This document shows positions 4,769-13,759 of a DNA stretch of 14,063 bases, piece by piece (the stretch's first letter is position 1; the number at the start of each line of letters is the position of its first letter). The stretch comes from a virus (lineage: Duplodnaviria; Heunggongvirae; Uroviricota; Caudoviricetes), in IMG/VR virus record IMGVR_UViG_2693429635_000015; one strand, written 5' to 3'. Under the pieces are notes generated by a model. The model was not told the DNA's origin. It was given only the letters and a program-made list of their open reading frames with translations, and did not search any database. A program made the translations under genes and the position numbers.

Positions 4769-5259
4769 GATTCGATGATTTTCAGAAACGGGTTAGTGGC
4801 TTTCTTCTGCCCCGCCAGGCCAATCAGACGCTGGCGGCTGCTGGGGTCGAGTCCGAGCATTGCCCCCGTGCTGCTCATCTCGGACTCCTGTTCTTTCTTG
4901 GCGGTCAGCTCCGGATTTTTGACCATGCCACCCATTGCACCGGTGATGGTGTTGCCCTGTCTGGCAATATTTTTCACGGCACGTCGCCAGAACTCATAGG
5001 CCACGCACCACCGCTCAAGTACCGCCAGGTCAGTCACGCACAGCAGGCCCTGACCGCAGAGTTCTTTGGTTGTCAGTTGCCACATGATCGTGGCGAGAGG
5101 GAGATCTTCTTCAGCGAACCACTCCGGTGGCTCAACACCTTTGATGGGCGTAAAAACAGGTTCATCTTTATTCAGGGCTCGCTTGCCGGGGTTTCCGGCC
5201 AGCGCCTTGCGCGCCGTTGGCTTGGGGCGACGCCCGGAACGCCCCGCCGTTCCAGCCAT
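4765..5259 (-). CDS. Terminase small subunit (P27-like family)
   Basis: N-terminus [30 protein letters not shown] is characteristic of P27-family small terminase subunits. The first ATG is at 5259 with AGGAG 8 nt upstream; the ORF track's 5268 start is an in-frame GTG that I consider less likely. Confidence 0.8.
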
Positions 5260-5268
5260 ATGCGGCAC

Positions 5269-5384
5269 TCCTGGTTAAATTTCATTTTTCGCGGGTATAA
5301 AAAAACGATGGGGCGGGCAGTCCGGAAGACGTCAGGCCGCAGGGATTTGACCCGCCCCTCCCCTCAGGCAGTTGAGAATTATTA
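5269..5384. other. Candidate cos / terminase recognition region (copy A)
   Basis: Intergenic region between HNH and TerS, where HK97-like phages carry cos. It contains a GC-rich imperfect inverted repeat GGGGCGGGCAG ... TGACCCGCCCC flanking a central GACGTC palindrome. The exact cut site cannot be determined from sequence alone. Confidence 0.35.
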
Positions 5385-5735
5385 TCACTTCAACCGTTCA
5401 CGGGCCGTCTTCGCCTTATGACACGGCCAGCACAGACTCTGCAGATTACAGTCGGCATCAGTGCCGCCATGCGCTTTAGGGATGATGTGGTCAACGGTTT
5501 TCGCCTCGCGCACCACACCAGCACGCAGGCACAACTGGCACAGGCCTTTGTCACGCTTGAGCACACGTTCACGGATAACATCCCATTTCGAACCATAACC
5601 GCGCTGGTGTCGGGACTGGCCTGGCTTGTATTGCTTCCAGCCTTCGCTTTTGTGGCTTTCGCAATAGCCTGACGAGTCAGTGGTGGTATGGCGGCAGCCG
5701 CGAACGCGGCAGGCTTTTGGGGTTCGTGGGGGCAT
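5385..5735 (-). CDS. HNH homing-type endonuclease (phage cos-cleavage accessory HNH), copy A
   Basis: Cys-rich N-terminus (CRVRGCRH...CESH) and an HNH motif (DHIIPKAHGG...N...CWPCH). ATG at 5735 with AGAGGA RBS; the start is supported by the near-identical copy B, which begins MPPRTPKACR. Sits immediately upstream of TerS as in HK97-like phages. Confidence 0.8.
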   Translation of the reverse strand: MPPRTPKACRVRGCRHTTTDSSGYCESHKSEGWKQYKPGQSRHQRGYGSKWDVIRERVLKRDKGLCQLCLRAGVVREAKTVDHIIPKAHGGTDADCNLQSLCWPCHKAKTARERLK

Positions 5736-5885
5736 TGCATAATCCTCTTGGATGGTTCGCGTACGATACGTGGCACCCTTCTCAGAATCGAATCGCACTC
5801 CATTCCGGTTTTGCCATAAACGATCTTTTATGCTTCGCTGGATGTAGTTGATAGTTGTTGAAACTCAATGAACAGGAGTTCACAA

Positions 5886-6221
5886 ATGAATAGTTATGAA
5901 TGGGCATGGCTTTTGAACAAAGATGACACCCTATACTTTTTCCCCGTAGGCCATTCTGTAGAAGGTAATTACAAAATTCACTTTGAGTTGAGCGGTAGTT
6001 GTAACCTTAGAGTCTCAGATGCTGAATTGCATGGTAAACCTGTACTGCTGTTCGAATACTTCGATGAAGATGATGACCGCCCTGCAATAATCGAAATATT
6101 AGAAACAACCACTACAACTGTGGAGGCGATGATCGCACATCTGAATAGTATCGATAGTATTTACCATGAACCGATTTACAAAGCTGTTTACGAGTGGGCT
6201 GTAAAGTTTTTCTATCGATGA
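5886..6221 (+). CDS. Hypothetical protein (111 aa from the second ATG), AT-rich accessory gene
   Basis: ORF track 5868..6221. The second ATG at 5886 has AGGAG at 5874-5878 with 7-nt spacing. Composition is clearly AT-rich relative to the phage structural genes. I recognise no family; an acidic stretch (EYFDEDDD) and a TTTT run are present. Confidence 0.55.
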   Translation: MNSYEWAWLLNKDDTLYFFPVGHSVEGNYKIHFELSGSCNLRVSDAELHGKPVLLFEYFDEDDDRPAIIEILETTTTTVEAMIAHLNSIDSIYHEPIYKAVYEWAVKFFYR

Positions 6222-6321
6222 TACTTCGTTATCTTTCTGGCATTCACAATACCTTTACATATTAATGACATGCCAGCACAATACTGTCACTTACAACCGT
6301 TCGGATTACCTAGAGAAAAGT

Positions 6322-6438
6322 ATGATTCAGGATTTACTGATCGAAGCAATTAGTCACGATAGGATGCATAAAAAGTTAAATGAACTGAATGGCTACTTCT
6401 ACAATCGCAAACATGAAACACAAATACGTGATGAGTGA
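6322..6438 (+). pseudogene. Short ORF (38 codons) running into the IS3 left end; probable truncated gene
   Basis: ATG at 6322; the frame stays open to the TGA formed by the first three bases of the IS3 terminal repeat (6436-6438). Weak RBS. Could also be a chance ORF. Confidence 0.3.
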
Positions 6439-6500
6439 TCTTACCCAGCAATAGTGGACACGCGGCTAAGTGAGTAAACTCTCAGTCAGAGGTGACTCAC

Positions 6501-6800
6501 ATGACAAAAACAGTATCAACCAGTAAAAAACCCCGTAAACAGCATTCGCCTGAATTTCGCAGTGAAGCCCTGAAGCTTGCTGAACGCATCGGTGTTACTG
6601 CCGCAGCCCGTGAACTCAGCCTGTATGAATCACAGCTCTACAACTGGCGCAGTAAACAGCAAAATCAGCAGACGTCTTCTGAACGTGAACTGGAGATGTC
6701 TACCGAGATTGCACGTCTCAAACGCCAGCTGGCAGAACGGGATGAAGAGCTGGCTATCCTCCAAAAGGCCGCGACATACTTCGCGAAGCGCCTGAAATGA
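6501..6800 (+). CDS. insE: IS3 transposase OrfA (InsE-like, HTH DNA-binding)
   Basis: 99-aa product [50 protein letters not shown]... matches my memory of IS3 InsE. GAGGTGA RBS upstream of the ATG at 6501. A probable -1 slippery site (CCAAAAG around 6761-6767) lies near the 3' end. Confidence 0.85.
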
Positions 6801-7663
6801 AGTATGTCTTTATTGAAAAACATCAGGCTGAGTTCAGCATCAAAGCAATGTGCCGCGTGCTCCGGGTGGCCCGCAGCGGCTGGTATACGTGGTGTCAGCG
6901 GCGGACAAGGATAAGCACGCGTCAGCAGTTCCGCCAACACTGCGACAGCGTTGTCCTCGCGGCTTTTACCCGGTCAAAACAGCGTTACGGTGCCCCACGC
7001 CTGACGGATGAACTGCGTGCTCAGGGTTACCCCTTTAACGTAAAAACCGTGGCGGCAAGCCTGCGCCGTCAGGGACTGAGGGCAAAGGCCTCCCGGAAGT
7101 TCAGCCCGGTCAGCTACCGCGCACACGGCCTGCCTGTGTCAGAAAATCTGTTGGAGCAGGATTTTTACGCCAGTGGCCCGAACCAGAAGTGGGCAGGAGA
7201 CATCACGTACTTACGTACAGATGAAGGCTGGCTGTATCTGGCAGTGGTCATTGACCTGTGGTCACGTGCCGTTATTGGCTGGTCAATGTCGCCACGCATG
7301 ACGGCGCAACTGGCCTGCGATGCCCTGCAGATGGCGCTGTGGCGGCGTAAGAGGCCCCGGAACGTTATCGTTCACACGGACCGTGGAGGCCAGTACTGTT
7401 CAGCAGATTATCAGGCGCAACTGAAGCGGCATAATCTGCGTGGAAGTATGAGCGCAAAAGGTTGCTGCTACGATAATGCCTGCGTGGAAAGCTTCTTTCA
7501 TTCGCTGAAAGTGGAATGTATCCATGGAGAACACTTTATCAGCCGGGAAATAATGCGGGCAACGGTGTTTAATTATATCGAATGTGATTACAATCGGTGG
7601 CGGCGGCACAGTTGGTGTGGCGGCCTCAGTCCGGAACAATTTGAAAACCAGAACCTCGCTTAG
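6797..7663 (+). CDS. insF: IS3 transposase OrfB (InsF-like, DDE integrase core)
   Basis: 288-aa product matching remembered IS3 InsF (…[34 protein letters not shown]…[10 protein letters not shown]…). In the -1 frame relative to OrfA, overlapping it by ATGA. Confidence 0.9.
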
Positions 7664-7693
7664 GCCTGTGTCCATATTACGTGGGTAGGATCA

Positions 7694-7862
7694 AAGCGAG
7701 AGGGAGATCTTCTTCAGCGAACCACTCCGGTGGCTCAACACCTTTGATGGGCGTAAAAACAGGTTCATCTTTATTCAGGGCTCGCTTGCCGGGGTTTCCG
7801 GCCAGCGCCTTGCGCGCCGTTGGCTTGGGGCGACGCCCGGAACGCCCCGCCGTTCCAGCCAT
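7694..7862 (-). pseudogene. Terminase small subunit 5' fragment (first ~56 codons) truncated by IS3
   Basis: Identical to the N-terminal coding part of the 4765..5259 TerS ([18 protein letters not shown]...EEDLPLA). The reading frame then runs into the IS3 right end (ORF track 7677..7871). Confidence 0.75.
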
Positions 7863-7871
7863 ATGCGGCAC

Positions 7872-7987
7872 TCCTGGTTAAATTTCATTTTTCGCGGGTA
7901 TAAAAAAACGATGGGGCGGGCAGTCCGGAAGACGTCAGGCTGCAGGGATTTGACCCGCCCCTCCCCTCAGACAGTTGAGAATTATTA
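7872..7987. other. Candidate cos / terminase recognition region (copy B)
   Basis: Same GGGGCGGGCAG...GACGTC...CCCGCCCC architecture as 5269..5384, differing by three substitutions that I could see. Confidence 0.3.
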
Positions 7988-8338
7988 TCACTTTAACCGT
8001 TCACGGGCCGTCTTCGCCTTATGACACGGCCAGCACAGACTCTGCAGATTACTGTCAGCATCAGTGCCGCCATGCGCTTTAGGGATGATGTGGTCAACAG
8101 TTTTCGCCTCACGCACCACACCAGCACGCAGACATAACTGACACAGACCTTTGTCACGCTTCAGAACACACGCGCGGATACTGTCCCACTTCGAACCGTA
8201 GCCGCGCTGATGACGGGATTGTCCAGGTTTGTATTGCTTCCAGCCTTCGCTTTTGTGGCTTTCGCAATAGCCTGACGGGTCAGTGGTGGTATGGCGGCAG
8301 CCGCGAACACGGCAGGCTTTTGGGGTTCGTGGGGGCAT
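7988..8338 (-). CDS. HNH endonuclease, copy B
   Basis: 116-aa ORF with the same HNH motifs as copy A. ATG at 8338 with AAGGAG RBS 8 nt upstream. Confidence 0.8.
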   Translation of the reverse strand: MPPRTPKACRVRGCRHTTTDPSGYCESHKSEGWKQYKPGQSRHQRGYGSKWDSIRACVLKRDKGLCQLCLRAGVVREAKTVDHIIPKAHGGTDADSNLQSLCWPCHKAKTARERLK

Positions 8339-8388
8339 TTAAATTTCTCCTTCAATCATTACTACTGGTCTACCCATCGTAATGGCAA

Positions 8389-8419
8389 CAAAAAACCGCC
8401 CGTGGAAAGTGGGCGGTTT
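8389..8419 (-). terminator. Rho-independent terminator (minus strand)
   Basis: Perfect 8-bp GC-rich stem (AACCGCCC / GGGCGGTT) with a ~9-nt loop, followed on the minus strand by a run of 7 T. Lies 15 nt downstream of the 8434..8754 gene. Confidence 0.6.
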
Positions 8420-8433
8420 AGGAGAGAATCGAT

Positions 8434-8754
8434 TTAAATCAAATTGCCGATAAATTTCGCCTGTACAGACAGAGTCGCACCAGGAACACCAGCAATTCCA
8501 CCTTCAAGGTAATAACCATCCCCAATATCTCTCACAGAGAGATCCATCACATAATCGTTAAGGCCTGCAATAACGTTTTGTGCTGAAGGGTTATGGCGGG
8601 ATACATGAAGTTTCAATACCCCATCTTGTACACGCCCCTGATAGGTAAACCCAAAATCACCACCATTAACCGCATTATCCTTCACAACGACCGTGCCATT
8701 GCCAACATCATTATGACCGCTTCTGAACACAACAAAATAAATGCCGTCTTTCAT
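8434..8754 (-). CDS. Hypothetical protein (106 aa), moron-like gene between spanins and HNH
   Basis: ATG at 8754 with AAGGA RBS 8 nt upstream. Preceded by a ~90-bp AT-rich spacer and followed by the terminator at 8389..8419. Gly-rich with no obvious signal peptide; family not recognised. Confidence 0.55.
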   Translation of the reverse strand: MKDGIYFVVFRSGHNDVGNGTVVVKDNAVNGGDFGFTYQGRVQDGVLKLHVSRHNPSAQNVIAGLNDYVMDLSVRDIGDGYYLEGGIAGVPGATLSVQAKFIGNLI

Positions 8755-9856: not shown

Positions 9857-10183
9857 TTACTCCTTAGAGCCACCAAATTTGTTACCGATTACTCGCATTG
9901 CAGCCCCACGAATAGCATCGACACCGATCAGCCCCACCCCACCACCAATGGCAACAGAAAGTGATTTAGGCCATCCGACATACTCAAGAGCGGATGCAAA
10001 GGTCAGCGTCAGAGCGCCACATAGCAAAATCTCGAGCGTTTTTCGCTTCCAGCCACCACCACCGCCAAAATAGGCGATGCGCAAACCAGCCATAACGATC
10101 GACATAATCACTGCACCCAGCGGTGTGTCTCCACGCCACCAGCTCTGGACCAAGTCCAGCCAGGTATTTGGGTTATGAGGCAT
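9857..10183 (-). CDS. Holin (class I-like, three predicted TM segments)
   Basis: Immediately upstream of the endolysin with a 3-nt gap. Three hydrophobic segments and a charged C-terminus. I chose ATG at 10183 (GAGGT-containing RBS region); the ORF track's longer form starts at a GTG at 10279 that overlaps the methylase 3' end. Confidence 0.6.
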   Translation of the reverse strand: MPHNPNTWLDLVQSWWRGDTPLGAVIMSIVMAGLRIAYFGGGGGWKRKTLEILLCGALTLTFASALEYVGWPKSLSVAIGGGVGLIGVDAIRGAAMRVIGNKFGGSKE

Positions 10184-10225
10184 TTCGTCATCTCTCACCT
10201 CGCGATATTTGCGGGTGCTGTGTTG

Positions 10226-10254
10226 GAAATAAAAAGGCCACGCAACGTGGCCAC
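10226..10254 (-). terminator. Putative rho-independent terminator (minus strand) between methylase and holin
   Basis: Stem GGCCACG / CGTGGCC with a 3-nt loop, followed on the minus strand by TTTTTATTT. The short loop makes this moderate confidence. Confidence 0.45.
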
Positions 10255-10259
10255 CAGAA

Positions 10260-11312
10260 TTATTTCCCCACCAGTTCACTTACCTCTTTCACCGTCTGAT
10301 TAAACCGCTCTGACTCAAGTTCAACACCTAACGCCCGACGCCCCAGCGCCATTGCTGCTTTTATTGTGGAACCGGATCCCATAAAAAAATCAGCAACCAG
10401 ATCACCAGGTCGACTACTGGCATTGATTATTTGCCTGAGCATATCCGCCGGTTTCTCACACGGATGTTTACCCGGGTAGAACTGAACGGGTTTATGCATC
10501 CAGACATCGGTATAAGGCACGGAGACTGATACGGAGAAATAGCGCCGGAGAGATTTAAACTCATCCAGCAATTCAGAATATTTGCGATTCAGTGAATCAT
10601 AAGACGCCACCAGCTGGTGGTGTGGTTGTTCCAGTTGTTGTTCCTGAAACTTCTCTGCCGCTATACGGGAAAACAGTGCCTGTAACTTCCGATAGTCAGC
10701 CTCATTCGGCAACTGCCACTGACTGGCACCAAACCAGTGGGAAACCATATTTTTCTTACCTGTGGCTTCGGCAATTTGTTTTGCCGTTATACCCAGTTCG
10801 GCACGAGCATCCCTGAAATACGATATCAGCGGTGCCATTATGTGCTGTTTGAGTTCCCTTTCTTTTGCCGCATAGCCGTCACTTTTGCCGCGATATGGCC
10901 CCTGGTAATGTTCAGCAAACAGAACGCGCTCTGTGGCAGGAAAATATGCGCGCAGACTTTCTTTATTACACCCATTCCAACGTCCGGACGGCTTCGCCCA
11001 GATGATATGGTTAAGCACGTTGAAACGTTCACGCATCATGATCTCAATATCAGATGCCAGGCGATGCCCACAGAACAGGTAAAGGCTTCCGGCAGGTTTC
11101 AACACCCGCCAGAACTGGGCCAGACAGTGGTCCAGCCACTTAAGGTAATCTTCGTCCCCTTTCCACTGATTGTCCCAACCGTTGGGTTTCACCTTGAAAT
11201 AAGGCGGATCGGTAACAATCAGGTCAATGGAATCATCAGGCAGGGACTGAATAAAATGCAGGCAATCAGCGTTGATTAAATCAACACTGTTTATTTTTAC
11301 AGTATTTTTCAT
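10260..11312 (-). CDS. DNA methyltransferase (amino-MTase, beta-class motif order; probably N6-adenine)
   Basis: 350 aa with catalytic motif IV DPPY near the N-terminus (IVTDPPYF) and AdoMet-binding motif I FxGxG near the C-terminus (FFMGSGST). No adjacent restriction endonuclease gene, so it looks like an orphan phage methylase. Confidence 0.85.
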   Translation of the reverse strand: MKNTVKINSVDLINADCLHFIQSLPDDSIDLIVTDPPYFKVKPNGWDNQWKGDEDYLKWLDHCLAQFWRVLKPAGSLYLFCGHRLASDIEIMMRERFNVLNHIIWAKPSGRWNGCNKESLRAYFPATERVLFAEHYQGPYRGKSDGYAAKERELKQHIMAPLISYFRDARAELGITAKQIAEATGKKNMVSHWFGASQWQLPNEADYRKLQALFSRIAAEKFQEQQLEQPHHQLVASYDSLNRKYSELLDEFKSLRRYFSVSVSVPYTDVWMHKPVQFYPGKHPCEKPADMLRQIINASSRPGDLVADFFMGSGSTIKAAMALGRRALGVELESERFNQTVKEVSELVGK

Positions 11313-11961: not shown

Positions 11962-12483
11962 ATGATGAACAAATTAGCACGCTTATTATTAACAGCAAGC
12001 TCAATTGCACCTGTTTGCGCAACTCTATTTTTTATTGGATATGTAAAAGATACGGTTTGGCTGATGCAATATAGCTTATGCGTTGGCATAGCAAGTTGGT
12101 TATTAGCAATAGGCCTGATTCAATATGCTGAGAAACAACTTGAACCTCTGACAAAAAATATTAGTTCAGTTTCTCCCGCTAACAAAGAAGTAACTAATTA
12201 TTTCTTAAGCTATTTATTCCCTCTCCTAGGAACAGACTCTATTGCTGAAAATAAAGCATATGCGTTATTCTTTTATTTGTCATTGTTATTTTACATCAGC
12301 TTTTCCGAGAACTATAACTTTAACCCAGTATTGTCACTTATCGGTTATAAATTTTACGAAGCTGAAGATGACACCGGCGTAGGTTTTGTATTGATTTCTA
12401 AATCAGTCATTACTGATATTAAAGATATCAAATTTACAGTTATTCAATTAACAGACTACACATTTCTACATGTTAAAGGATAA
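11962..12483 (+). CDS. Integral membrane protein (173 aa, ~4 predicted TM helices plus a ~60-aa C-terminal soluble tail); first gene of candidate accessory/defense cassette
   Basis: AAGGA RBS before a tandem ATG at 11962. Hydrophobic segments at roughly residues 8-28, 35-55, 80-92 and 100-115. Strongly AT-rich codon usage, unlike the flanking phage genes. Opposite strand to all surrounding phage genes. Confidence 0.65.
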   Translation: MMNKLARLLLTASSIAPVCATLFFIGYVKDTVWLMQYSLCVGIASWLLAIGLIQYAEKQLEPLTKNISSVSPANKEVTNYFLSYLFPLLGTDSIAENKAYALFFYLSLLFYISFSENYNFNPVLSLIGYKFYEAEDDTGVGFVLISKSVITDIKDIKFTVIQLTDYTFLHVKG

Positions 12484-12488
12484 TAACC

Positions 12489-13373
12489 ATGGCACTTTTT
12501 GCAGTAATAGATAATACAATTGCAACGAGAATTGTTAGAGTCGAACTTGATGCAACAGCAAGTACTTCTGTTACGGCCATTTTCCAACAACAGCGTCAAT
12601 ATTTTGAAAGTCATCATAACAATATGATACCATTCTATGCCGGTTATACACCAAAACATAGTGAGTGTTTTGAAATACAAAACTTTACTGATTCTGCACG
12701 CCTGATTGACGCAGTCAATAGGCCTACCGCCGTGCCTGTCTGGGATCCCAGCCAAATTGATATTGGTTATATTAAAGCATTATTTGTTGGTGTTGACGCG
12801 CCAGCAAACCCCAATATTATTGCGCTACAAACCTTCAACAAAAAACAAATCTTAGATACCTCAAAATCATTCTTTGGAAAGCTTTTTGCAAGCAAAACTA
12901 CCTTTAGTAAAGCTAATAGCATCGGTTTTAATGTTGATGATAAACTAGTTGCAATAATTATCAATGATACAATACGATTTAAGAGTTTCTTTAATCTAAG
13001 AAGCATTTTTGACATGTTGTCCTATTTTTCTGCTGCTACTGACCAAGAACTTAATGCATTTAGTCAACTTAGTGTATTTTCTACTCCCCAAGGTTTTGAT
13101 CTAAAATCCGTTGCAGATACAGTGATAAGAAATAAAGTAACACTAATAAATCAGACTGGGATGCTAACACCCCAAAATATGTCAAAGTTTAAATCCGAAG
13201 CTGCTAAAGTCAATTTCCCCTTACAAACCATAATAGTTGGCGGTGTTGAGAAAATTGTCATGCCTTCATCAAAAAAAGAAATAAAAGCCCTTCTTGACTT
13301 TCTTGAGGAAGACATTTGGATTTCTGGGATAAGTGGAAGACGCTTTAAATCGAATTCAAAGCGCCCAATATAA
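12489..13373 (+). CDS. Hypothetical cytoplasmic protein (294 aa); second gene of candidate accessory/defense cassette
   Basis: ATG at 12489 lies 5 nt after the upstream stop, with AAAGGA 8 nt upstream, so the two genes are translationally coupled. AT-rich, no TM segments, no motif I can assign with confidence (an R-x5-H pattern near residue 36 is noted but weak). Its stop is 21 nt from the convergent Q stop. Confidence 0.65.
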   Translation: MALFAVIDNTIATRIVRVELDATASTSVTAIFQQQRQYFESHHNNMIPFYAGYTPKHSECFEIQNFTDSARLIDAVNRPTAVPVWDPSQIDIGYIKALFVGVDAPANPNIIALQTFNKKQILDTSKSFFGKLFASKTTFSKANSIGFNVDDKLVAIIINDTIRFKSFFNLRSIFDMLSYFSAATDQELNAFSQLSVFSTPQGFDLKSVADTVIRNKVTLINQTGMLTPQNMSKFKSEAAKVNFPLQTIIVGGVEKIVMPSSKKEIKALLDFLEEDIWISGISGRRFKSNSKRPI

Positions 13374-13394: not shown

Positions 13395-13742
13395 TTAACA
13401 GGCAAGAGTGCAAACAATGCCTTCAATGAAACCAAGCGATGTTTGCAACTCTTTCCTGATAGTCCCATCCGAACACTTTCTCTTCTTAGCAATGGCTCGC
13501 AATGAAATCCCTACTACAAAATGGGCTATAACTAACTCATACTCTTCTGGTTTGTACTTTCTTAATCTAGCTACGCACCCATCGATCATGAGCCCCTCAT
13601 CATCATCACACTGAATCCGGGACTTTTTGCCATGAGGTAAAAGCCCCTTGAAGCCAGCGGCTACCGGTTGCCAGTCCACTCCGCTATTGTCTGAAGCAGC
13701 CCAAGCTCCCCAACGATCCATCACTTCATACATATCACGCAT
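13395..13742 (-). CDS. Late-gene antiterminator Q (small Q class, phage 82 / DLP12 QuuD-like)
   Basis: 115 aa from the first ATG at 13742 (GGAG RBS 7 nt upstream); the ORF track's 13757 start is TTG. Contains RWGAWAA and Cys-rich motifs (CDDDE...DGC, ...CSDG) that I associate with small Q antiterminators. Position (after a DUF1364 gene, upstream of the lysis genes) fits. Confidence 0.65.
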   Translation of the reverse strand: MRDMYEVMDRWGAWAASDNSGVDWQPVAAGFKGLLPHGKKSRIQCDDDEGLMIDGCVARLRKYKPEEYELVIAHFVVGISLRAIAKKRKCSDGTIRKELQTSLGFIEGIVCTLAC

Positions 13743-13759
13743 CAACTTTCTCCACAAAA

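Follow-up and report, generated by a model that had tools for sequence, protein, structure and literature searches.

We analyzed a 14,063-nucleotide stretch of DNA from a Caudoviricetes virus (IMG/VR record IMGVR_UViG_2693429635_000015; this whole stretch is called the window below), which belongs to a lambdoid prophage of Escherichia coli whose HK97-type head module is encoded on the minus strand. Our subject is two small open reading frames (ORFs) on the plus strand of the window, ORF-A (positions 5886 to 6221) and the remnant of ORF-B (positions 6322 to 6438), the second of which is broken by an IS3 element. On balance, we favor the view that A and B are independent, horizontally acquired moron cassettes in the slot between the lysis and the packaging genes and that B would be a nuclease expressed by the lysogen for defense. 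A is a separate small acidic cytoplasmic protein, independent of B. The first-pass annotation of the window had already placed the two genes in a moron position, which is borne out by their being AT-rich cargo between lysis and packaging genes. It had also suggested that they could form a functional pair (immunity, anti-defense, or toxin-antitoxin like), and this idea is not supported, since each gene is found without the other elsewhere in the Enterobacterales.

Intact ORF-B and its predicted nuclease fold

In the window, ORF-B starts at ATG 6322 (MIQDLL...), the position at which every homologue starts, and runs for 38 codons on the plus strand before the first bases of IS3 form the TGA that serves as its codon 39 (6436 to 6438). 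These are the first 38 codons of a 189-amino-acid gene (phrog_12494; WP_000613842). The first-pass annotation had noticed that this frame ends in the terminal TGA of the insertion sequence (IS) and had taken this to suggest that the element had inserted into the gene or recombined within it. Both points hold. We screened 5,426 complete E. coli genomes for the 700-bp region under study, counting it at an identity of at least 95%, and found it in 80 of them; B was present in all 80 and A in 79, always together, and an intact 189-amino-acid B was found in 75, while genome NZ_CP180607 carries the insertion flanked by a GAG duplication and followed by the rest of B. The search for intact homologues, proposed earlier as a way of recovering the full length and the neighbors of the truncated gene, thus gave both: in UPEC_U013 (L001), ORF-B measures 570 nucleotides (189 amino acids) and ends 22 nucleotides before the convergent Rz1/LysC gene.

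Both A and B are under purifying selection across genera, with pS values of 0.62 to 0.92 (saturated) against pN values of 0.09 to 0.28, and dN/dS was 0.06 to 0.16 in the A and B comparisons for which it could be calculated. Saturated synonymous sites together with a low pN indicate that A and B are real genes and not chance ORFs. The short ORF is conserved, and the 111-residue protein encoded by ORF-A does not belong to the common structural or regulatory proteins; the reverse of these two results would have counted against the earlier reading of this region. The B family is small, comprising 27 clusters among 5.8 billion proteins, and its close homologues are confined to the Enterobacterales; a hidden Markov model search of 1.84 billion representatives retrieved just 42 relatives at E < 1e-3. 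A literature search with the accession numbers and PHROG identifiers of A and B found no mention of either.

An AlphaFold2 (AF2) model of B, computed from an alignment of 16 sequences, reached a mean predicted local distance difference test score (pLDDT) of 84.7 and a predicted template modeling score (pTM) of 0.85. It contains, in order, a helix (residues 30 to 46), three strands (50 to 53, 65 to 68, and 80 to 89), a second helix (97 to 108), and a fourth strand (117 to 127), i.e., the four-stranded mixed beta-sheet flanked by helices (alpha-beta-beta-beta-alpha-beta) that forms the PD-(D/E)xK core. In an alignment of 38 sequences reaching down to 18% identity, the only invariant residues were K30, E32, D64, E85, and K87, with N28, R36, E54, P56, and D93 nearly invariant. 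These residues fall where the PD-(D/E)xK signature has them, with a glutamate in helix 1, an aspartate at the start of strand 2, and E85-x-K87 in strand 3. Based on the model and on these residues, we consider it probable that the ORF-B product is a solitary nuclease that adopts the PD-(D/E)xK (restriction-endonuclease-like) fold and has E32...D64...E85-x-K87 as its catalytic signature. The earlier description of both genes as being of unknown family hence needs to be revised for B, to which a fold can be assigned, and stands for A.

Sub-threshold matches of distant members of the family point in the same direction. In Pfam, they included HSDR_N (1.4e-4), PDDEXK_9 (0.022), DUF234 (0.017), and DpnII-MboI (0.046); nuclease families made up 4 of the 16 sub-threshold families, the other 12 being unrelated and represented by one or two weak matches each. 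In PADLOC, four of the seven sub-threshold models were nucleases, namely, SduA (1e-5, one distant member) and three type II restriction enzymes (0.004 to 0.045). When 10 distant candidates were scanned again, the SduA match could not be traced to a member, and only a type II restriction enzyme match reappeared. A significant profile match of B to a curated family of the PD-(D/E)xK clan was not obtained, all matches remaining below threshold. B is thus a small uncurated family that is new within a well-known superfamily.

The closest structural neighbors of the B model are type II restriction enzymes, and weak matches to type II models were obtained as well. This raises the question of whether B could be one half of a split type II restriction-modification system, with B as the endonuclease and the phage N6/N4 enzyme (10260 to 11312) or a host enzyme such as Dam as the methylase. 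Indeed, an N6_N4 methyltransferase (E = 2e-42) is among the genes of this prophage, a D12-class methyltransferase lies 3.3 kb from B in the Yersinia locus, and the order to which the close homologues of B are confined, the Enterobacterales, possesses Dam. However, the methyltransferase of the window is not adjacent to B; some 4 kb separate the two, and the enzyme is encoded in another moron slot, on the opposite strand. Furthermore, the six Enterobacter prophages with B have no methyltransferase within 6 kb, and none was found in the Pectobacterium locus or in the loci of distant homologues (overall, none within 4 to 6 kb of B in L005 to L010, L023, L031, and L034). The adjacent, coinherited methyltransferase that characterizes type II systems is thus missing from B, and to invoke a methylase of the host would be purely speculative. 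Since no methyltransferase is consistently found near B, we conclude that B is not a conventional restriction-modification endonuclease, and we regard a split system as very improbable.

ORF-A, the separate distribution of the two genes, and the cassette border

ORF-A encodes 111 amino acids (13 kDa; pI 4.6) and is intact in the window. Its coordinates and its good AGGAG ribosome-binding site, as originally annotated, were confirmed: the site was read from the sequence at positions 5874 to 5878 (plus strand), 7 nucleotides before the ATG, and RefSeq holds an identical coding sequence as WP_001505012.1, a hypothetical protein. An alternative start, the ATG at 5868, was ruled out, as all homologues begin at the methionine equivalent to 5886. 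The AT richness of both ORFs and their antisense orientation relative to the phage module, also remarked upon earlier, are equally clear. GC contents are 0.396 for ORF-A, 0.370 for the spacer between A and B, and 0.351 for the ORF-B remnant, compared to 0.555 for the head and terminase module, and the two ORFs are on the plus strand, whereas the late genes (HNH, terS, terL, portal, and lysis genes) are on the opposite strand.

The A protein belongs to an orphan family (phrog_14397) comprising 15 clusters among 5.8 billion proteins, or 39 with a profile search, with the close homologues restricted to the Enterobacterales. It harbors an acidic patch (FEYFDEDDDRP), in which the stretch EY.DEDDD is invariant among homologues, and a strongly conserved C-terminal helix pair; neither a signal peptide nor a membrane segment was seen when the sequence was inspected by eye. 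The AF2 model of A was poor (pLDDT 55), and scans of Pfam, NCBIfam, PADLOC, and PDB gave no assignment, PHROGs returning only a family of unknown function. Four of 28 A homologues matched the C-terminal domain of the P22 antirepressor (P22_AR_C), with a best E value of 0.007, and a CPR-C4 match recurred in PDB (E of about 0.1); both are weak, and we did not accept either. ORF-A is probably expressed in the lysogen, and its product probably acts by binding a protein partner.

Outside E. coli, the two genes are found apart. Homologues of A (56 to 74% identity) occur without B in L011 to L019, L022, and L025 to L028, covering at least five prophage backgrounds with slot and orientation unchanged, and lie 66 to 70 bp from the divergent first packaging gene, whether the packaging module is of the Terminase_2, the PhageMetallopep/DUF2280, or another type. 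Conversely, homologues of B (65 to 71% identity) occur without A, again with no change of slot or orientation, in prophages of Enterobacter (L005 to L010), Yersinia (L021), and Citrobacter (L029 and L030), and a Pectobacterium copy (L023; 68% identity) also lacks A and has a context that is not prophage-like. More distant relatives of B (30 to 46% identity) are solitary chromosomal genes, one of them beside recJ and tusA. Two further observations concern these families. In L020 (616 to 1767), a distant B relative (P0049; about 30% identity) in a lipid biosynthesis neighborhood comes after another ORF that is equally long (182 amino acids) and is possibly a tandem paralogue. A metagenomic protein of 119 amino acids (P0027) from a 44.5-kb ENA contig shows 95% identity to the first half of A and 92% identity to a short part of B, and probably is the product of a deletion that fused both cassettes.

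These distributions bear directly on the possibility that A and B form an obligate module of the toxin-antitoxin or abortive infection type, in which B would be a toxic nuclease and the acidic A its antitoxin, inhibitor, or DNA mimic. Several features are compatible with such a module: A and B of E. coli are always neighbors on one strand, with 100 nucleotides between them; A is small and acidic, with its FEYFDEDDDRP patch; B has a predicted nuclease fold; and the window and four complete genomes combine an IS-broken B with an intact A. Coinheritance as a unit across lineages, which would be expected of a toxin-antitoxin pair, was not observed, A and B being together only in E. coli. B without A in Enterobacter, Yersinia, Citrobacter, and Pectobacterium, its solitary distant homologues, and A without B in many prophages all speak against a module. 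In the six Enterobacter prophages, B does follow a small ORF (72 to 75 amino acids), but this ORF is unrelated to A (hhalign probability of 0.3% against the A profile). Additionally, each cassette has its own copy of a boundary motif (see below), which indicates separate acquisition. As A and B are separable outside E. coli, an obligate toxin-antitoxin or immunity pair is refuted in its general form, and we give an obligate module little credit overall. A and B may nevertheless cooperate within the E. coli lineage.

The boundary motif is an 18-nucleotide sequence, CCAGTCCGGTTTTGCCAT, found 66 to 68 nucleotides upstream of every A start codon, that of the window included, and 38 to 41 nucleotides upstream of the B start in the B-only loci of Enterobacter, Pectobacterium, and Citrobacter. 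The Yersinia B-only locus has only a diverged version. No copy has more than two mismatches to the motif. The window copy (CCATTCCGGTTTTGCCAT; 5800 to 5817, minus strand) has a single mismatch, with 0.01 chance matches expected. The reverse complement of the motif, ATGGCAAAACCGGACTGG, encodes MAKPDW and is the true start of the divergent terS in A-only loci, while the copy in the window reads MAKPEWSAIRF and then meets a stop (11 codons); here, as in most B-only loci, only a noncoding remnant is left. The window motif is the vestigial 5' end, with translation initiation region, of a Terminase_2-type terS that was carried along with cassette A. Being the conserved 5' end of terS and standing at a fixed distance from the cassettes, CCAGTCCGGTTTTGCCAT most likely marks a recombination joint at which mosaic phages would swap cassettes.

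In the A-B spacer (6222 to 6321, plus strand), which aligns weakly to the boundary motif, there is a degenerate motif copy and a weak sigma-70-like site, TTTACA-17-CACAAT (6254 to 6282). In loci with B only, GTATAAT comes after the motif, and this gives an extended-minus-10-like sequence, TGTATAAT, about 30 nucleotides before the ATG.

Another possibility is that A and/or B serve the phage itself, in DNA processing near cos, recombination, host takeover, or counter-defense, or as a free-standing selfish element that resembles a homing endonuclease and targets the 5' region of terS. The genes are always beside the packaging genes and the cos region, the terS-derived 18-nucleotide motif at every cassette border could be a homing target, and the predicted nuclease B is adjacent to an HNH nuclease. 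Moreover, four A homologues have weak P22 antirepressor matches, and Rha and KilA-N antirepressor-like genes are found in the same slot. On the other hand, both genes are AT-rich foreign DNA in antisense orientation to the Q-driven late operon, their flanking genes vary widely among loci, and a search of 50,697 phage genomes detected neither. The disruption of B by IS elements at two independent sites shows that the gene is dispensable, and its distant relatives are chromosomal and not phage linked. A phage function is therefore an unlikely explanation, and we retain that of independently acquired moron cassettes.

The IS3 insertion and the layout of the window

The IS3 element (6436 to 7693, plus strand; 1,258 bp) starts with TGATCTTACCC..., has the imperfect terminal inverted repeats TGATC...GATCA and the two overlapping ORFs (orfA, 6492 to 6800; orfB, 6797 to 7663) of the IS3 family, and is labeled in RefSeq as an [quoted passage not shown] By cutting B after codon 38, it removes D64, E85, and K87, so that B is dead in the window.

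The element is not, however, a simple insertion as it stands in the window. Its left junction is in ORF-B, but its right flank (7694 onward) consists of a foreign terS fragment followed by an HNH gene instead of the rest of ORF-B. This second terS 5' fragment (P27 family; 7694 to 7871, minus strand) is joined directly to the right end of IS3 and is 98% identical to positions 5091 to 5268. It belongs to a 300-bp direct repeat (5086 to 5385 and 7689 to 7988; 98% identity) that covers the terS 5' end and the spacer between terS and HNH, and the HNH gene itself is present twice. The window thus joins segments of two related prophages across IS3. The flanks of the element are GAG on the left and AAG on the right, without a target site duplication, which is explained by the different origins of the two flanks.

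The left junction was found in three complete genomes. In NZ_CP180607 (L002), IS3 is a simple insertion with the GAG duplication, and the remaining 455 nucleotides of B follow it. In NZ_CP189657 and NZ_CP182220 (L003 and L004; about 9925 to 10528), IS3 is bordered on its right by the icd side of the attachment site, and everything from B to the end of the prophage (the entire lysis, early, and immunity part) is deleted; the right flank of these two genomes identifies the icd (e14) site as the place of prophage integration. In all three genomes, the tail terminator gene, located at the opposite end of the head module, is truncated by another IS3-family transposase (positions 1 to 554), indicating that these prophages are heavily degraded by IS elements. 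In strain 24AR0142 (L037; NZ_CP195362; 3501 to 5059), a different IS3-family element in the opposite orientation disrupts B near nucleotide 320. Two different IS sites in B mean that the gene was inactivated independently at least twice. A further IS3 copy in this strain truncates the lysozyme gene 1 kb away.

We infer that the IS3 of the window inserted into B long ago and subsequently underwent recombination with an IS3 copy in the terS of a related prophage; such an exchange with a second copy would have given the window junction. Intact versions of the second terS are present in other E. coli prophages, with matches beginning at window positions 7689 to 7696. The right junction itself is absent from all 5,426 complete E. 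coli genomes, and one could thus suspect an assembly artefact, i.e., a repeat collapsed across two IS3 copies. This would fit with IS3 being a 1.26-kb multicopy repeat, with the lack of a target duplication, and with other matches beginning at 7689 to 7696. Nevertheless, the three genomes sharing the left junction have two kinds of right flank (one genome continues with the remainder of B, the other two with the icd side), which documents real IS3 rearrangement, and the structure of the window is just what would result if two directly oriented IS3 copies underwent an exchange. We therefore think that an artefact is rather improbable and keep to the recombination described above.

To the left of ORF-A, the minus strand encodes, in leftward order, the HNH endonuclease, a P27-family terS, terL, ymfR, the portal gene, and onward. 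The first HNH gene (copy A; 5385 to 5735, minus strand), with its start codon located and its identity taken from the ORF list and the RefSeq annotation of an identical locus, opens the packaging module and bounds the variable slot on the left. The second (copy B; 7988 to 8338, minus strand) is part of the second prophage segment. There, the slot between HNH and the lysis cassette is occupied by alternative cargo, a 106-amino-acid gene (8434 to 8754, minus strand) that matches Pfam GrlR below the cutoff (E = 4e-5) and is labeled "GrlR family regulatory protein" in near-identical RefSeq loci; the lysis cassette comes after it. The presence of this gene shows that the slot is variable. A GrlR-family gene is also found together with an A homologue in L017 to L019. 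A conserved hairpin followed by AAAAAACCGCCC...GGCGG, a terminator-like element, lies about 30 to 90 nucleotides downstream of A in the A-only loci L011, L013, L017, and L025 and recurs in the window at 8360 to 8420, beside HNH copy B. In the A+B arrangement, the AT-rich spacer and B stand in its place.

The window further carries a complete Kiwa system on the plus strand, with KwaA at 11962 to 12483 (PADLOC E = 1.9e-83) and KwaB at 12489 to 13373 (E = 1e-149). These genes are AT rich as well (GC content of 0.30 to 0.39) and antisense to the late operon, and they are flanked by the antiterminator gene Q (13395 to 13757, minus strand) on one side and by the N6_N4 DNA methylase (10260 to 11312, minus strand) and holin genes on the other.

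Proposed role of the cassettes and relation to known systems

We propose that A and B are independent cassettes, stacked head to tail in the slot that has the lysis cassette on one side and the packaging module (HNH-terS-terL) on the other. Recombination inside the conserved terS 5' end would serve to exchange cargo in this slot, and the E. coli arrangement would have arisen from the stacking of two separately acquired cassettes. B would be expressed in the lysogen from its own promoter, antisense to the Q-dependent late transcript, and would act as a self-sufficient anti-phage nuclease cutting incoming nucleic acid. Because no cognate methyltransferase travels with B, some other means of discriminating self from nonself is required, which could be dependence on DNA modification or activation triggered by a phage. 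By analogy with the systems discussed below, B is most likely defense cargo of the lysogen that has been inactivated in the window.

Several points weigh against this view. The defensive role proposed for B is drawn from its fold, its position, and analogy. B itself has no match above threshold in Pfam, NCBIfam, or PADLOC, with only an "unknown function" entry in PHROGs; sequence-profile searches of PDB (three profiles in all, those of B included) gave nothing usable, and Foldseek found nothing significant for the B model in PDB. Profile searches and the AF2 model gave no assignable fold or family for A. As for expression, promoter-like sites are no more common than expected by chance, the site in the A-B spacer being the one weak candidate, and a terminator scan found none. 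Within E. coli, A and B are invariably associated (79 and 80 genomes), so that they may cooperate in this lineage. Finally, tblastn against 50,697 sequenced phage records, phi80 included, gave no match to A or B, so that the carriers may all be defective or poorly sampled prophages.

A broader proposal, which we advance tentatively and hold to be rather doubtful as a whole, is that B founds a family of partner-free and methylase-free PD-(D/E)xK anti-phage nucleases of about 190 amino acids, found both in the prophage hotspot and as solitary chromosomal genes. A would then be an unrelated single-protein factor of defense or counter-defense using the same joint at the terS 5' end, and the IS hits would reflect the cost of B or autoimmunity, as with tai of phi80.

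If B is indeed an active stand-alone nuclease defense, it would add a minimal effector to the immune genes borne by prophages. It lacks a methylase and is not represented in Pfam, PADLOC, or NCBIfam, and it would further allow one to examine cheaply how self-cleavage is avoided by a nuclease that acts alone. The motif CCAGTCCGGTTTTGCCAT, which precedes both cassettes, offers a concrete candidate for the joint by which cargo is shuffled upstream of packaging genes. The window itself mainly documents the decay and rearrangement of a prophage driven by IS3, with a dead B and an orphan A.

Among known systems, the nearest in position is Tai. [quoted passage not shown] ORF-A and ORF-B have the same placement and orientation, divergent to the Q-dependent late operon. 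tai of phi80 is prone to transposon insertions when costly (PMC11364771), and the IS hits at two independent sites in B are reminiscent of this. Homology of A or B to Tai or Ati was looked for and rejected, with hhalign probabilities of 2.6% for TaiEcA and B, 0.4% for TaiEcA and A, and 0.05% for AtiEcA and A.

HepS of Gifsy-1 provides a functional precedent, as this single prophage-encoded HEPN-domain nuclease is a complete, trigger-activated defense without a partner gene (PMC13043305). B, a predicted nuclease, likewise has no partner gene. Its fold is different: HepS has a HEPN domain and TaiEcA, by our own reading, an R-x4-H HEPN motif, while B is predicted to adopt the PD-(D/E)xK fold. EcoRV-like type II enzymes (R.SwaI, BglI, EcoRV, HincII, and SfiI) share this fold with the B model, but their identity to B is just 12 to 15%, and unlike type II restriction enzymes, B has no cognate methyltransferase, no curated-family match above threshold, and no significant Foldseek match in PDB. 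Shedu (SduA, DUF4263) resembles B as a single-gene nuclease defense of the same fold superfamily. However, B is only 189 amino acids long, neither it nor its close homologues match SduA, and the variable N-terminal sensor domain of SduA is missing from it.

Lastly, lambda bor, HK97 gp15, and the Kiwa genes of the window are AT-rich and autonomously transcribed cargo placed between conserved phage modules, often antisense to the late operon; A and B are AT-rich cargo of this kind and would be autonomously transcribed as well. The former genes differ in having known products (membrane or lipoprotein exclusion factors and KwaA/KwaB), whereas A and B are cytoplasmic and unrelated to these in sequence. 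Overall, the hotspot position, the precedents of Tai and HepS, the presence of Kiwa in the same prophage, and the variability of the slot make defense cargo the most economical reading for B.

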